Shown here in pieces: positions 6,001 to 12,000 of a DNA stretch of 24,564 bases. Position numbers: made by a program. Every line of letters begins with the position of its first letter. Within the stretch, counting starts at the first letter, position 1. The stretch comes from a virus (lineage: Duplodnaviria > Heunggongvirae > Uroviricota > Caudoviricetes), in the IMG/VR virus record IMGVR_UViG_2740892233_000024; one strand, written 5' to 3'.

Positions 6001-9000
6001 CGCATACTTTCGTCGCGATAGATGATCGGGGATTCAGTAACATTCACGCCGGAAGTGAACTCAAAGAGGGTTCTGGCGTCGTTCTCGTACTGTTTTCCCC
6101 AGGCCAGAGCCTTAGCGTTAACTTCCGGAGCCACACCGGTGCAAACCTCAGCCAGCAGGGTGTGGAAGTAGGACATTTTCANNNNNNNNNNTCGGGGTTT
6201 TGCTATTACGTTGTGAATTTCTGAAGCTGTGATGACGCCGAGCCGTAATTTGTGCCACGCATCATCTCCCTGTTCGACAGCTCTCACGTCGATCCCAGTA
6301 CGCTGCAGGATAATGTCCGGTGTCATGCTGCCACCTTCTGTTCAGTGGCTTTTTGTTTCAGGAATCCAAGAGCTTTTACTGCTTCGGCCTGTGTCAGTTC
6401 TGACGATGCACGAATGTCGCGGCGAAATATCTGGGAACAGAGCGGCAATAAGTCGTCATCCCATGTTTTATCCAGGGCGATCAGCAGAGTGTTAATTTCC
6501 TGCATGGTTTCATCGTTAACCGGAGTGATGTCGCGTTCCGGCTGACGTTCTGCAGTGTATGCGGTATTTTCGACAATGCGCTCGGCTTCATCCTTGTCAT
6601 AGATACCAGCAAATCCGAAGGCGAGACGGGCACACTGAATCATGGCTTTATGACGTAACATCCGTTTGGGATGCGACTGCCACGGCCCCGTGATTTCTCT
6701 GCCTTCGCGGGTTTTGAATGGTTCGCGGCGGCATTCATCCATCCACTCGGTAACGCAGATCGGATGATTACGGTCCTTGCGGTAAATCCGGCATGTGCAG
6801 GATTCATTGTCCTGCTCAAAGTCCATGCCATCAAACTGCTGGTTTTCGTTGATGATGCGGGACCAGCCATCAACGCCCACCACCGGAACGATGCCGTTCT
6901 GCTTATCAGGGAAGGCGTAAATTTCTTTCGTCCACGGATTAAGGCCGTACTGGTTGGCGACGATCAACAATGCGATGAACTGCGCATCGCTGGCATCACC
7001 TTTAAATGCCGTCTGGCGAAGAGTGGTGATCAGTTCCTGTGGGTCGACAGAATCCATGCCGACACGTTCAGCCAGCTTCCCTGCCAGCGTTGCGAGTGCT
7101 GTACTCATCCGTTTTATACCTCTGAATCAATATCAACCTGGTGGTGAGCAATGGTTTCAACCATGTACCGGATGTGTTCTGCCATGCGTTCCTGAAACTC
7201 AACATCGTCATCAAACGCACGGGTAATGGCTTTTTTGCTGGCCCCGTGGCGTTGCAAATGATCGATGCATAGCGATTCAAACAGGTGCTGGGGCAGGCCT
7301 TTTTCCATGTCGTCTGCCAGTTCTGCCTCTTTCTCTTCACGGGCGATCTGCTGGTAGTGACGCGCCCAGCTCTGAGCCTCAAGACGATCCTGAATGTAAT
7401 AAGCGTTCATGGCTGAACTCCTGAAAATGGCTGTGAAAATATCGCCCGCGAAATGCCAGGCTGATTAGGAAAACAGGAAAGGGGGGTAGTGAATGCTTTT
7501 GCTTGATCTCAGTTTCTGTATTAATATCCATTTTTTATAAGCGTCGACGGCCTCACGAAACATCTTTTCATCGCCAATAAAAGTGGCGATAGTGAATTTA
7601 GTCTGGATAGCCATAATTGTTTGATCCATTTTTCGGGACTCCTGGCTGATTAAGTATGTCGATAAGGCGTTTCCATCCGTCACGTAATTTACGGGTAATT
7701 CGTTCAAGTAAAGATTCGGAAGGGCAGCCAGCAACAGGCCACCCTGCAATGGCATATTGCATGGTGTGCTCCTTATTTATACATAACGAAAAACGCCTCG
7801 AGTGAAGCGTAATTGGTATGCGGTAACGCCGCGCTCAGGCGGCTTTGATAGTCATATCATCTGGATCAAATATTCCTGATGTATCGATATCGGTAATTCT
7901 TATTCCTTCGCTACCATCCATTGGAGGCCATCCTTCCTGACCATTTCCATCATTCCAGTCGAACTCACACACAACACCATATGCATTTAAGTCGCTTGAA
8001 ATTGCTATAAGCAGAGCATGTTGCGCCAGCATGATTAATACAGCATTTAATACAGAGCCGTGTTTATTGAGTCGGTATTCAGAGTCTGACCAGAAATTAT
8101 TAATCTGGTGAAGTTTTTCCTCTGTCATTAAGTCATGGTCGATTTCAATTTCTATTGATGTTTTCCAGTCGTAATCAATGATGTATTTTTTGATGTTTGA
8201 CATCTGTTCATATCCTCACAGAAAAAAATCGCCCTCACATTAGAGGGCAAAGAAGATTTCCAATAATCAGAACAAGTCGGCTCCTGTTTAGTTACGAGCG
8301 ACATTGCTCCGTGTATTCACTCGTTGGAATGAATACACAGTGCTTACTCGTACTAATAAAATACCCAATTTTCTGTTTCTTGGTTGTGTCCAAAGTTATA
8401 TTCAATATCTGGTGTTGATGTATCAATATTTTTCATCCCATCAACAAGAGTTGATACAACAGCCAAATCTTGTTTTATTCTCATTAAATGGTATTTCTTC
8501 CGGCGCAATAAACTTTCAATAGCAAGTTTCTTCGTTGGGAATGCAAAAGATCTTTCTGCATTTTTTGCTACTTTCTTAATTGCATATCTATTTCTCCTTT
8601 GTTTCCATTCCTGTAACCACTGATTTGGTGCTGGTTTAAAATTAACAATCCAATGCGCAGGAACCAACCATGCATAATGCTCTGTCTGATGAAAAGCTAT
8701 ATATTGAAGTGCGAATATTTTTATCCCATCTTCTTCAACTGTCGCCTGGAATCTCCAGAAAACAGGCATTCCATCATGTTCAGTTTCTGATTCAGGAAAA
8801 GGTACGCTCCATGATTTTGTCATATCTCACCTCAAATAAGTGGTTTGCTGTCTAATTTCATTTTCTGGCGACCAACACAAGTCACACCCATTTCACTGCG
8901 TGGCTTGCGGTAGTAAAGATTGTGCCTGTCTTTTAACCACATCAGGCTCGGTGGTTCTCGTGTACCCCTACAGCGAGAAAAATAGTAAAATCCTCTTACC

Positions 9001-12000
9001 CCTACAGTAAGAGAGTAATTTATATGGATGTGTTATCTGGTATAACTGCCGCGAAACAGGCTTATGATCTGCTGAAGACAATAAAAGAAACCAGAGACGA
9101 TGCTGTTATCGCTAAAGCTATTGGTGATCTACACCAAAGAATAACTGACTTACAGATGCTTAATGCGGAGCTCTCTGGCCTTTATCAGGCCGAGAAGGAG
9201 ATCGCAATGAAGCTTCGAGATGAAAATAGAAAAATCAAGATGTTTGTTGTGCAAGCTGAGAATTATGAACTTCATACAACTGAAGGTGGTTCTGTCGTGT
9301 ATCGACCTAAGAGTCATTCCGATCCTTCTATTCAGCAGCATAACCTTTGTGCACATTGCTTCGGCGAACATAAAATATCGATACTTCAACCAAGCACGGT
9401 TACTATAAAATCTAATGGGTTCTTTGTGCATTCATGTCCTCGCTGTAAGAATGAATACCGGATGTATAGAGCGCCAGACCCTAAGCCTGTATATGTACCG
9501 CCGCTGACAAATTATTAATTTTATTCCTGAAATGGCCTCTTCACCCCCTTACTTTGTCAGGGGGATATCTCCTTCAGTTTTGACCATTCGCCTTAATACT
9601 TTCCTTAAGTCGATGTAAAGTTGAAGGTCTCCATTTGCTGCGGCATCAGCCATTTTTTGCCTGACAAGCAGTAATGTTTCATACGGCTCAATAAGAATAT
9701 CGTCATGAGTAATTAGGTGAAGCGTTGCCGCATCAACTATTCCTAGAGCTGCGCCAAGTATCAAAAATTCCCTGCTATTTTTGTCGCATGAGGAGATAAG
9801 CGTATTTAGCGCATACCTAATATTCTTTATAGCTGTTGTTAATGCTGCAATTTCTTCTATGGCGTCTTCTCCAATGAGCTTTTTAAGCTCATATTTTTCT
9901 TCCTGACCCATAATTACCTCGCCGTCAGTTGTTTTGATTTCCGGTAGCCTGCCGCGTAAATGGCTACGTTTGGCAGGCAAATACTTCCACTGCATTCATC
10001 TGCCTTCTTGCAGCGAAGGCTTCCGAGTGATGCTGCTTTATCTGCTCTGACGCAACCAGAGAGCTTTAGCGCAATTTTTCGTGCCAATCGCTGTTCTTGC
10101 ATTGCCTGTTCACGTTGAGCCTGTCTGCGTGCTCTGCGGCGATTTCTGGCGTTATCGTCAGCCAGATATGTAATGACTACTGTCATGTTGACCTCCGATG
10201 ATTGACTTTGGCGGTGACGCGCCGCGTGCTTATCTTCCGGTTGCCGTCTTGCAGCTGCACTTCACGTCACCCCAAAGCCAACTACTCTTTGGTTCCCGCA
10301 TTTCGGCGGGACAATCCCATCAATGTTAAAGAGCCTGCCAATCTGTTCCGTTTGGCTTCCAGCGTCCTGCTGATGGCTTAAAGATAACTTAGGTTATAGG
10401 TGTGGTCAATAACCTAATTTATATTTTATGGTAAATAGGTTATAAGTGATGGATAACAAAGGTATTTTATTTTTGTAAATGTTGCTGATTGATTGGTGTT
10501 TGAGGGCTTGCGTGCGGGGTGAAGGTGTTACCTTTGGCTTGATGCTTGTCTATGATGAGGATGGTTGATTGGGTGGTGAACGGCAGGAAAAGAAAACCCG
10601 GCGCTGAGGCCGGGTGTTTTTAGTCTTTTCTTTTGCTTAGCATTTCGTCGATTTCTAAGTCAATACGATATTGATCTATTGCTTTTCTCTCGTTTGGGGT
10701 TGGTATTTTATACTGTTCAATTAGATCTGTTGTGTATTTTATTTCATCTAATGTGATTTTTATATCAGAGAGAATCTCTTTTATATCAATTATATGCTCT
10801 TCTTCTTTTGCACGATTAGAGCTATGTTCAATCATTTGAGATAGCTTTTTACTAATGCTTAGCAAAACAAAAAGAATGATGACCAAAACAACAACAAAAA
10901 CTATCAGAAATTCCATTATCCCTCCGCACTTCCGTAAGTCTTCTTCTGATTATCGGTTACCAACTATGAGACGACCAGAATACTCTGCCAATAATCCTTA
11001 CGGTTTCATGAAATTCATCTCTATCCATTACTTCATCCGGGTACTCTTCGCGATTTATTGATCTGATTATCACCGATGTAGGGGTGGCGATTAATGTTTT
11101 TACTCGTAACAAATCAGACTGGCAAATAGCGTAGGTTTTACCATCTCTGATTGTGGTATCTTGCGTGTTAACACCAACAACATCGCCATCGTGAAGCGTT
11201 GGTTCCATGCTTTGCCCTACAACCCTAACTAGCTTGGCTGATCTTTCAGATACTCCCATCTTTTTCAGATAGTGCTTTCTGAAAACCAAAGAGAACTCCG
11301 ATGATTCCTCTAGCTCGCAGCTACCGCTTCCAGCTGAAAGCGAAACGTTAAGAAGAGGCAACGCAACAAACTCGTCATCGTTTCTTTTAATGTCTTCCCA
11401 TACCACAGCTTTTAAAGATGAATCACGGACATTGGATGGTTCTTCATGTGCACCATCCCTCATTTCACCAATACCAGAACTAAGCCATTCAGGGCGCACT
11501 TTTAAAGCATTGGCTAATTCAACCATCTTGCGAGATCCGTTTGTTTTACCGGACGACATCTTCTGTATGGCTGGCTGAGATATTCCAACCATGTCAGCAA
11601 GCTGTGATTGTGATACCCCTGCTGAGCTCATGGCTGCATTTAGTCTTTCTGCGAATGTTTTCATACCCACAAATCTATAACTACGGTTATCCAAAGTAAA
11701 ATAACAAAGGTTATTGCTATTTTTTATAACTTGAGTTATCTTTGGTTATAAGTAATGACCACAAGAGGTATGCTCATGAATTTAGTAATTCAACGAGCCT
11801 TGAAAATTGTCGGTAGCCAAAAGCGCCTTGCCGACAAGTGTGGTGTAACGCAGCCAGCAGTACACAAATGGCTGAAAGGCGGGTTGGTCTCTCCAGAGAA
11901 AGTTACCGCCATCGTTAACGCCACTGGAGGGCAGATCAAGGCTTACGAAATTCGCCCCGATTTGCCACACCTGTTTCCAAAACCGAATCAGGCAGCATAA

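Follow-up and report, generated by a model that had tools for sequence, protein, structure and literature searches.

Rip1 of phage HK446, along with Rip1 of a P. aeruginosa prophage, is reportedly the subject of Patel et al. (Nature 651:1060, 2026). In the part of the review PMC13434031 that deals with Patel et al. 2026, Rip1 is presented as a recently described, pore-forming abortive-infection defence consisting of a single protein made by the prophage; the mechanism is also summarised in PMC13601566. According to the former summary, Rip1 lacks a transmembrane segment of the classical kind and relies on an N-terminal amphipathic helix instead, and the C-terminal half is the part contacting the ring. 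The account of the mechanism used here is drawn from these two summaries and from the title of PDB 9oox.

An older system is found in the early left region of lambdoid phages. The interval between ea10 and N of lambda reads ea10(-) ral(-) orf28(-) sieB(+) N(-). SieB, with Esc and sas, is known from both P22 and lambda. It follows the logic of prophage-expressed abortive infection, faces antisense transcription from pL and is preceded by a promoter and leader cassette of ~105 bp, with a -10 of the form TAnnnT and a +1 at the A of the second ACCCCTACAG. Ral (restriction alleviation, lambda and P22) is encoded left of this type of cassette, in the N-dependent part of the pL operon.

The window analysed here is the whole 24,564 nucleotides of the viral record IMGVR_UViG_2740892233_000024. 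Its ea10–N interval, the slot of lambda ral, orf28 and sieB, carries ORF1 (8353..8823, minus strand), ORF2 (9024..9518, plus strand) and ORF3 (9549..9911, minus strand), all of them real, conserved genes located where the initial annotation had placed them. The left flank is ea10 (DUF2528; 7835..8203, minus strand), recognised by Pfam PF10800 (E 2.6e-46), phrog_646 and its lambda ea10 position. The right flank is a 90-aa N antiterminator of the HK620/phage 21 type (9914..10186, minus strand; Pfam PF25694 (N_peptide), E 1.1e-15; phrog_271; HK620 annotation). Between ORF1 and ea10, in a tL2-type position, a consensus scan called a leftward intrinsic-terminator-like hairpin (8229..8250; 8-bp stem with 5 GC pairs, then TTTTTTT), and the HK620 record has tL2A and tL2B annotated at this place.

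The interval is a cassette-exchange hotspot whose contents vary among related phages, as had been proposed from its conserved flanks. 933W carries L0079 alone (ea10-L0079-N), HK620 carries hkaP and hkaQ and has neither ea10 nor ORF1, HK446 carries an 83-aa ORF and Rip1, and gp17, an unknown 149-aa gene or a GhoS-like gene are found elsewhere. L0079 of 933W and hkaP and hkaQ of HK620 are 99–100% identical orthologues of ORF1, ORF2 and ORF3, respectively, and their annotations are positional guesses or 'hypothetical'. The three proteins give full-length matches to phrog_1636, phrog_1244 and phrog_7374, all of unknown function. Each of the exact sequences is present on at least 1000 public contigs. 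We read the interval as three independent accessory genes, not a single system, with ORF2 belonging to the Rip1 family (probability roughly 0.78). Overall, it holds a known kind of defence gene, in a new subfamily, together with two uncharacterised early-operon genes.

The defence gene, of the abortive-infection or exclusion type, is ORF2, the 164-aa HK620 hkaP, which lies in the slot and orientation of sieB, opposite to both its neighbours. In its AlphaFold2 model (pLDDT 84.7), residues 3-22 and 26-78 are helical and the C-terminal domain after them is rich in beta structure, and C109, C112, C138 and C141 are invariant across 22 homologues; a coiled-coil-like N-terminal region and a Cys4 motif had been described earlier. 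Chain L of PDB 9oox, 'ring interacting pore 1', matches residues 3-146 of 164 (phmmer with the single sequence, E 1.8e-10; profile search, E 1.2e-17). A Foldseek search with the ORF2 model placed 9oox_M and 9oox_L, titled 'HK446 Rip1 in complex with T6 small terminase', at the top (E 6.9e-7, TM-score 0.71); the third-ranked match already had an E of 0.7. By BLASTP, ORF2 is 28% identical to HK446 Rip1 (HK446_037) and 27% identical to JBD30_030, the homologue that stands here for the P. aeruginosa prophage Rip1, over nearly the full length. Both are likewise 164 aa long, with N-terminal helices and a C-terminal beta domain carrying CxxC...CxxC. The motifs NYExH, VYRxK, CAxC, ILQP and CxxC are kept, and Y81, H84, VYR92-94, K96, C109, C112, ILQP120-123, C138 and C141 are invariant in ORF2, HK446 Rip1 and the Pseudomonas relative. 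By sequence and predicted fold, ORF2 is thus a full-length Rip1 homologue, and we place it in a separate subfamily because of the 27–28% identity.

The family was recovered by tblastn from 30 Pseudomonas phage records, including the Mu-like DMS3, JBD30 and D3112, and from 18 Escherichia phage records, and the hkaP-type subfamily was found in Enterobacterales only (34 clusters at 90% identity). Members are always stand-alone genes on the opposite strand, either adjoining cI, convergent with N, between Q and the holin, or in the late-gene region of JBD30. HK446 Rip1 is located between N and cIII, convergent with N, in the same slot as ORF2; here, hkaQ intervenes between ORF2 and N. A PADLOC (2023) search gave no curated-model match for ORF2, Rip1 being absent from that release, public annotation still has 'hypothetical protein', and no experimental data on the hkaP-type subfamily were found. 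The protein can nevertheless not be called unrecognised or undescribed, as the initial annotation had it, since it falls in the Rip1 family and the GenBank record of HK620 already describes hkaP in a note as 'putative superinfection exclusion protein'.

ORF2 could also be a Rip1 homologue that acts differently, as a zinc-ribbon nucleic-acid-binding regulator or by exclusion at DNA entry, without ring-templated pores. The identity to the compared Rip1 proteins is only 27–28%, Pfam gave weak similarity to zinc-ribbon families and nothing else, and no transmembrane segment was predicted (best 18-residue hydropathy 0.81). However, the last point applies to Rip1 itself in the review's summary, the homology spans both domains end to end, and the motifs common to Pseudomonas, HK446 and ORF2 lie in the C-terminal half, the ring-contacting half according to the same summary (PMC13434031). 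As ORF2 and HK446 Rip1 also share length, slot and promoter cassette, we consider a different mode of action unlikely, although this level of identity may leave room for another trigger or stoichiometry.

The promoter of ORF2 is assigned by base-for-base alignment with the annotated P22 sieB promoter, which identifies a PsieB-type promoter and leader cassette of ~105 bp at 8921..9023 (plus strand). It comprises a putative stem (8924-8928 with 8943-8947) with compensatory changes at 2 pairs, a repeat TACCCCTACAG at 8963-8973 overlapping a -35-like TGTACC (8961-8966), a -10 TAAAAT at 8986-8991, a predicted +1 at A8998 aligned to the P22 sieB RNA start site, and a second repeat copy at 8997-9007, the window holding these two copies only. 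The ORF2 Shine-Dalgarno AAGAGAG follows at 9009-9015. Owing to its poor -35, the region ahead of ORF2 was not called as a sigma-70 promoter by a consensus scan. Near-identical copies of the cassette precede HK446 Rip1 and lambda sieB. Among 130 instances, an ORF of at least 40 aa lies downstream in 129, and all 129 belong to one of two families, SieB (~95) or Rip1 (~34). SieB and ORF2 share slot, orientation and cassette, but they are different proteins with no detectable sequence similarity.

By homology with HK446 and Pseudomonas Rip1, the C-terminal Cys4 beta domain of ORF2 would dock on a late, ring-forming protein of a superinfecting phage, namely its small terminase or its portal. Some twelve copies would gather round the ring, after which the amphipathic N-terminal helices would open a pore in the membrane and the infected cell would die before progeny mature. 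Transcription of ORF2 would run rightward, against the pL operon, and since it starts from a sieB-type cassette, expression in the lysogen is expected, as for sieB. When the resident phage grows lytically, transcription running leftward from pL would cross ORF2 antisense and, just past the ORF2 start, meet a terminator-like hairpin on the minus strand (8992..9014; by consensus scan, a 9-bp stem followed by ATTTTACTAT). Read on the plus strand, this candidate terminator gives the ORF2 5'-UTR hairpin, which contains repeat 2 and part of the Shine-Dalgarno sequence. The antisense transcription may damp ORF2 expression, in a manner comparable to the sas antisense RNA of P22. The locus differs from Esc/sas in that no minus-strand, sas-like promoter was found near the ORF2 5' end, and that ORF2 showed no conserved in-frame start within the gene from which a truncated, Esc-like inhibitor could arise; M62 has a good Shine-Dalgarno in this sequence, yet is not conserved in the family.

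The idea that the three genes form one cluster or module does not hold, as they assort independently and each occurs without the others (933W, HK620, HK446, E. coli 19AR1724 and hkaQ contigs). The Stx1a phage Stx1a_10051 carries the full set of three, as do 64 of 5426 complete E. coli genomes, with O26 strains among the top matches. hkaP and hkaQ are present in 66 of the 5426 genomes, and ~30 more match the hkaQ end only, as judged from sampled matches. E. coli 19AR1724 has the order N-hkaQ-[149 aa]-ORF1.

A functional unit could still be imagined in which ORF2 is the toxin or defence effector and ORF3 (or ORF1) an early immunity factor guarding the induced prophage from its own Rip1. ORF3 would be made first from pL, the records of the phage collection that have close hkaP are exactly those that have close hkaQ, and no sampled match in the complete E. 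coli genomes had a close hkaP allele without hkaQ, whereas hkaQ alone is possible, an antidote-like pattern. The hkaP-hkaQ block is, however, 99–100% identical in DNA wherever it is found, and the linkage therefore reflects recent common descent. Furthermore, the gene next to a 64%-identical hkaQ is GhoS-like and not Rip1, 27 of the 42 hkaQ-bearing viral contigs have no Rip1 neighbour, and Rip1-like genes at 79%, 71%, 63% and 51% identity, as well as HK446 Rip1, occur without hkaQ. DNA of the ORF1 segment matches ~1950 of the 5426 genomes, against 66 with the full hkaP-hkaQ block. We find such a unit quite improbable and retain the reading of three independent genes.

ORF1, corresponding to 933W L0079 (156 aa; phrog_1636, E 3e-112), occupies the ral position, directly left of the sieB-type cassette. 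As described earlier, it is AT-rich (GC of 35–37% over 8250-8849, against 43–52% in the flanks) and has a strong ribosome-binding site, GAGGTGA, 5 nt before the ATG. Ral is 66 aa long and ORF1 has no sequence similarity to it, in line with the earlier view that these ORFs are unrelated to the lambda genes. Searches of Pfam, NCBIfam, PADLOC and PDB gave no match for ORF1, and its AlphaFold2 model was poor (pLDDT 59.5). Homologues form 33 clusters in Enterobacterales, and those of Pectobacterium and Brenneria adjoin xis-int, another difference from Ral. There is a remote family of 87 representatives, and relatives of this kind lie in the early regions of phages, with recombination and regulator genes around them. 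Since ORF1 lies beyond the leftward hairpin at 8992..9014, its expression would be N-dependent, and it is probably an early lytic accessory protein.

ORF3, corresponding to hkaQ (120 aa; phrog_7374, E 3e-79), begins 2 nt after the N stop codon, not 3 as first given, and its Shine-Dalgarno GAGGT is inside the end of N. This spacing is close enough for translational coupling, and as the gene lies upstream of the first leftward terminator-like hairpin in the scan, ORF3 would be made immediately after infection or induction. A longer, 148-aa version from a mechanical listing was rejected, as the 64%-identical P0070 has its start at the corresponding MSLEEKYE and the HK620 record gives 120 aa. The distribution is narrow: a search of 5.8 billion proteins gave just 5 clusters. 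Upstream of hkaQ, 34 of 42 viral contigs have an ORF that stops 2 nt short of it; these are N genes, and several arginine-rich-motif types are represented among them.

The absence of known domains and the narrow range of ORF3 could suggest that ORF1 and ORF3 are decaying or non-functional filler in a recombination hotspot. This is very hard to reconcile with the strong ribosome-binding sites of both, the conservation of ORF1 to 55% identity over several genera with 40 invariant positions, and the length, frame and N junction of ORF3, kept in 34 of 42 contigs and accompanied by an intact, 64%-identical homologue. Our best guess for these two early lytic accessory proteins, by analogy with Ral, is a role in host takeover or counter-defence. 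That one or both specifically disarm host immunity, as early pL products functionally analogous to Ral, Ocr or Gam, is possible but doubtful. Both genes are small and non-essential, belong to the mosaic early genes and have no enzymatic domain; ORF1 is in the place of ral and has remote relatives beside recombination and regulator genes, and ORF3 comes first after N, behind N genes of several nut specificities. The case is purely positional, however: neither has homology to known anti-defence proteins, a detectable homologue of known function or a usable structure, and accessory genes of early operons can equally be regulators, division inhibitors or without phenotype. Of the defence or anti-defence module proposed initially, ORF2 stands as a defence gene, whereas for ORF1 and ORF3 the analysis found no link to defence or anti-defence other than position and early expression.

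Between the convergent ORF2 and ORF3, a CCCCC/GGGGG hairpin (9544..9564, plus strand) could be read from the sequence, overlapping the ORF3 stop codon and a shorter hairpin called by the consensus scan; it might possibly act as a terminator of the ORF2 transcript.

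The window corresponds to the early region of a Stx-type lambdoid prophage, in which segments of 434, Stx1a and Stx2a phages form a mosaic. Leftward from the immunity region, cI (10957-11694, minus strand) comes first, followed by a 98-aa membrane ORF between cI and the pL/N region (10620-10916, minus strand, in a stretch of 31% GC), N (9914-10186, minus strand), ORF3, ORF2, ORF1 and ea10 (7835-8203, minus strand), beyond which lie the cIII/kil region, gam and bet. In lambda the same interval is filled by ral and orf28 on the minus strand and sieB on the plus strand, with ea10 and N, both minus strand, at its two ends. 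ORF1 (8353-8823, minus strand) encodes 156 aa, ORF2 (9024-9518, plus strand, opposite to its neighbours) 164 aa, and ORF3 (9549-9911, minus strand) 120 aa. Megablast identified ORF1 as 933W L0079, and ORF2 and ORF3 as hkaP and hkaQ of HK620, so that the interval is a mosaic of two arrangements sequenced before. The Stx1a phage Stx1a_10051 carries all three genes, as do 64 of the 5426 complete E. coli genomes; O26 strains rank among the best matches. All three are real genes at these positions. Across its entire length each ORF falls into a PHROG family without known function, and its exact sequence is present in at least 1000 public contigs. Scans of the three proteins against Pfam, NCBIfam and PADLOC gave no significant match, and the component models of PADLOC-DB v2 (2023) matched them at chance level only (E >=0.0035). 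That library lacks Rip1 (ring interacting pore 1), a protein described after it was built.

ORF2, which the initial annotation listed as unrecognised, proved to be a homologue of Rip1 in both sequence and fold. A profile of the ORF2 family matched chain L of PDB entry 9oox, 'ring interacting pore 1 (Rip1)', with E 1.2e-17, and the single sequence matched the same chain over residues 3-146 in phmmer (E 1.8e-10). 9oox carries the title 'Escherichia phage HK446 Rip1 in complex with the Enterobacteria phage T6 small terminase'. By BLASTP, ORF2 is 28% identical to HK446_037, the Rip1 of HK446 (E 4e-14), and 27% identical to its Pseudomonas phage homologue JBD30_030 (E 1e-16); both are also 164 aa long, and the alignments span about 145-161 of the 164 ORF2 residues. 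An AlphaFold2 model (pLDDT 84.7) is helical over residues 3-22 and 26-78, with a beta domain behind them, and Foldseek returned the Rip1 fold, with 9oox_M and 9oox_L as the sole PDB matches with E <1e-3 (E 6.9e-7; TM-score 0.57 by query and 0.71 by target). On the grounds of sequence and predicted structure, ORF2 is thus a Rip1-family protein.

According to a review (PMC13434031, summarising Patel et al., Nature 651:1060, 2026) and to PMC13601566, Rip1 is a prophage protein that is harmless by itself. Escape mutations map to the portal in Pseudomonas phages and to the small terminase in E. coli phages, and twelve Rip1 monomers encircle an 11-mer small terminase. The pore is formed by the N-terminal amphipathic helix together with the ring, and permeabilises membranes, leading to late abortion of infection. 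The layout of ORF2 fits the architecture given for Rip1 in PMC13434031, a single protein of ~160 aa with N-terminal amphipathic helices and a C-terminal ring-contacting domain. The N-terminal helical region of ORF2 has amphipathic segments with hydrophobic moments of 0.38-0.51, and residues kept across Rip1 subfamilies sit in its C-terminal half. Invariant in ORF2, HK446_037, JBD30_030 and diverged hkaP-type proteins are Y81, H84, V92-Y93-R94, K96, C109, C112, I120-L121-Q122-P123, C138 and C141. The four cysteines are also invariant among 22 homologues. By analogy, ORF2 is a putative anti-phage pore that would be harmless alone and act on small terminase or portal rings.

The Rip1 family was found by tblastn in 60 phage records, 30 of them from Pseudomonas phages including the Mu-like DMS3, JBD30 and D3112. 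Its members are single opposite-strand prophage genes in four different slots, and ORF2 likewise stands alone. In this allele a perfect AAGGAG lies 6 nt before the in-frame ATG of M62 (9198-9209, plus strand), and a start there would yield a 103-aa C-terminal fragment without most of the N-terminal helices, in principle Esc-like. M62 is not conserved in the family, and this internal start, probably a chance feature, was rejected. A start at M73, which is conserved, was rejected as well: it lacks a Shine-Dalgarno sequence, and in the HK446 and JBD30 proteins a Trp aligns with it. On hkaP, the literature search found no more than a biosensor paper, in which the intergenic regions serve as sites for insertion. 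The GenBank record of HK620 notes hkaP as a 'putative superinfection exclusion protein'. The suggestion of an undescribed defence locus therefore holds in that a defence gene is present, namely ORF2, but not in its being undescribed: ORF2 is a diverged addition to a family described in 2026, and an exclusion role had already been guessed for hkaP in that GenBank note.

The ~105 bp directly before ORF2 (8921-9023, plus strand) are far better conserved than the gene itself. This cassette is near-identical before HK446 Rip1, although the HK446 protein is only 28% identical to ORF2, and before lambda sieB, whose product is unrelated to ORF2 (BLASTP E 0.93 over 9 residues). Near-identical copies also precede rip1-like genes of Salmonella and Serratia, and a Yersinia rip1-like gene placed between Q and holin. 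HK446 Rip1 is convergent with N and lies between N and cIII, in the same place and orientation as lambda sieB and ORF2. Lambda sieB, HK446 Rip1 and genes for Rip1 of the hkaP type thus share the cassette, across several genera and slots; among the comparison loci, copies lie in L004 (3342-3464), L014 (1375-1482), L143 (900-1006) and L019 (2880-3000). It holds two copies of TACCCCTACAG, 34 nt apart, which are the only two in the window. A pattern scan of viral contigs, combined with the loci already examined, gave 130 instances, and in 129 of these an ORF of at least 40 aa starts within 80 nt downstream. Approximately 95 of the 129 ORFs cluster with SieB and approximately 34 with Rip1, and no other family is represented; ORF2 and SieB cluster apart. 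Of the side results of the analysis, this shared promoter cassette, whose cargo is always SieB or Rip1, is the most interesting.

The segment 8921-9023 aligns to the experimentally annotated sieB promoter and RNA start of P22 (NC_002371.2, promoter 29690-29720, RNA start 29727), where the RNA starts at the A of the second ACCCCTACAG in the cassette. Transferred to the window, this alignment places a -35-like TGTACC at 8961-8966, the -10 element TAAAAT at 8986-8991 and +1 at 8998, all on the plus strand, followed by a 26-nt 5' UTR with a Shine-Dalgarno sequence. The TAnnnT positions of the -10 element are invariant in 28 diverse copies. Because the cassette matches the P22 sieB promoter, transcription of ORF2 in the lysogen, like that of sieB, is to be expected.

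In an upstream stem of the cassette (8924-8928/8943-8947), two pairs show compensatory changes. The three exceptions to pairing in this stem are A-C or C-A on the plus strand, and would be G-U pairs in the leftward RNA only. Read on the leftward strand, the ORF2 5'-UTR hairpin followed by a T-run looks like a terminator for leftward transcripts. These features are compatible with a role in antisense control or termination, as for the P22 sas RNA (PMC12197685), but are no proof of it. Compensatory changes were confined to this first stem; a second one, which encloses repeat 1, has none. AACCAC/GTGGTT may pair as a pseudoknot, in an alignment whose register shifts between variants. No Rfam model matched the cassette.

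ORF1, ORF2 and ORF3 had been taken as a three-gene module, but they are three independently assorting genes. In 933W, L0079 (ORF1) stands alone between ea10 and N, whereas HK620 carries hkaP and hkaQ without ORF1. E. coli 19AR1724 has the order N, hkaQ, a 149-aa gene on the same strand and ORF1, with Rip1 absent, and another strain has N, hkaQ, a 62-aa gene and gp17. DNA of the ORF1 segment is found in ~1950 of the 5426 complete E. coli genomes, roughly a third, whereas hkaP and hkaQ are present together in 66, and ~30 more, estimated from sampled rows, match the hkaQ end only. Relatives of ORF1 in Pectobacterium and Brenneria prophages are located just upstream of xis-int. With these arrangements, lambda's ral/orf28/sieB and the GhoS-like gene described below, the contents of the interval vary enough between prophages to confirm it as a real exchange hotspot, as first proposed.

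A toxin-immunity or effector-antidote pair of ORF2 and ORF3, with hkaQ as the immunity factor of Rip1, was considered. The two genes do occur together in HK620 and in 15 of 42 viral contigs with hkaQ, but a Rip1 gene is absent from the other 27, and co-occurrence is not kept across diverged members. Rip1-like genes at 79%, 71%, 63% and 51% identity have no neighbouring hkaQ, and a 64%-identical hkaQ is followed, at the Rip1/sieB place, by a convergent GhoS-like gene (PF11080). Both the pairing and the immunity role were therefore rejected in favour of independent assortment. The GhoS-like protein of these phages has 94 aa (PF11080, E 8.6e-7; locus L006, 4430-4714, minus strand; also L007 and L008). 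GhoS itself acts as antitoxin in a type V toxin-antitoxin system.

ORF3 begins 2 nt past the N stop, and in 34 of the 42 viral contigs (L147-L188) the upstream ORF likewise ends exactly 2 nt before hkaQ. The N genes in this position carry at least three arginine-rich motifs, of the 21/HK620, 933W and P22 types. The constant junction with differing N genes indicates that hkaQ travels with the N 3' end, implying a recombination boundary inside N. In a scan for hairpins, hkaQ lies upstream of the first leftward terminator-like one, and we therefore infer that it is an immediate-early gene. NCBI/PGAP gives it the name 'antitermination N domain protein', and in many public records its ORF is extended to 148 or 158 aa; in the window (9549-9995, minus strand) the extended ORF overlaps N in another frame. 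Neither the Pfam N families (PF25694, PF26859 and others, at E up to 1) nor any NCBIfam model matched ORF3, so that the name, like the long start, seems to be an artefact of annotation, the 148-aa version being a product of mechanical ORF calling. The 120-aa start is preferred because the 64%-identical homologue starts at the equivalent position and HK620 annotates 120 aa. Relatives of ORF3 form five clusters among 5.8 billion proteins, with none in PDB, in Pfam or in a scan of one genome per species. Residues 50-67 form a hydrophobic stretch.

As noticed initially, ORF1 is AT-rich, with 35-37% GC in the covering stretch, and has a strong ribosome-binding site, GAGGTGA. Its close relatives form 33 clusters in Enterobacterales. 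The remote family comprises 87 representatives of 130-155 aa with a basic motif, K-x-I-x-K...RFAF-x-T-K...RK-x-x-Q-L-x-H-L-K, and remote relatives are located in phage early regions beside HTH, Rha or recombination genes. None of 50 extended family members matched Pfam, profiles of the close family and of the 50-member extended family reached E 0.17 at best against PDB, and all PHROGs matching the family are of unknown function. BLASTP found no similarity to Ral (E 24), and a literature search for 933W L0079 found nothing. For ORF1 and ORF3 alike, position and timing make an early host-takeover or counter-defence role our best guess.

These observations can be combined into one tentative reading, to which we give a probability of about 0.3. 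The cassette would be a portable socket for exclusion genes. Two unrelated kinds of abortive-infection effector, the SieB family and at least two subfamilies of Rip1, would have replaced each other as its cargo, and it would have moved between the N-cIII slot, a site next to cI and the Q-holin slot. Its conserved upstream stem may be part of an antisense or terminator device within the cassette, by which the resident phage would silence its own exclusion gene once pL fires. The hkaP-type Rip1 would sense a ring protein other than those of HK446 and Pseudomonas Rip1, and the widespread ORF1 together with ORF3, which keeps its 2-nt distance behind N genes that differ in nut specificity, may supply undescribed delayed-early and immediate-early counter-defence proteins. 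If this is true, a search for further prophage exclusion genes could take the cassette as its sequence flag.

For the hkaP-type gene, which is present in HK620, HK629, HK630 and prophages of the Stx1a type, O26 E. coli prophages among them, and is 'hypothetical' in public records, a specific and testable mechanism can now be proposed, namely ring-triggered pore formation of the Rip1 type. In lambdoid phages Rip1 takes the classical place of sieB, downstream of the sieB promoter, which ties an exclusion system of the 1990s to one of 2026, and the shared promoter suggests a simple sequence handle for more cargo genes. Correcting the three-gene module avoids cloning the wrong unit. ORF1 and the N-adjacent hkaQ are uncharacterised early genes worth including in an anti-defence screen.

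The hotspot also carries other cargo. In E. coli 19AR1724 the 149-aa protein is encoded on the pL strand where Rip1 would be (locus L016, 2444-2893, minus strand), and in locus L015 a P22 gp17-type gene (2265-2576, minus strand; PF17420, 'superinfection exclusion gene product 17', E 7e-56) lies further left. Outside the interval, the 98-aa ORF at 10620-10916 has an N-terminal hydrophobic helix (MEFLIVFVVVLVIILFVLLSI...) and matches phrog_18389, of unknown function. In a tblastn search of the phage collection only Stx1a_10051 has it. Its position is that of rexAB in lambda and stk in 933W, and it is a candidate prophage-expressed moron.
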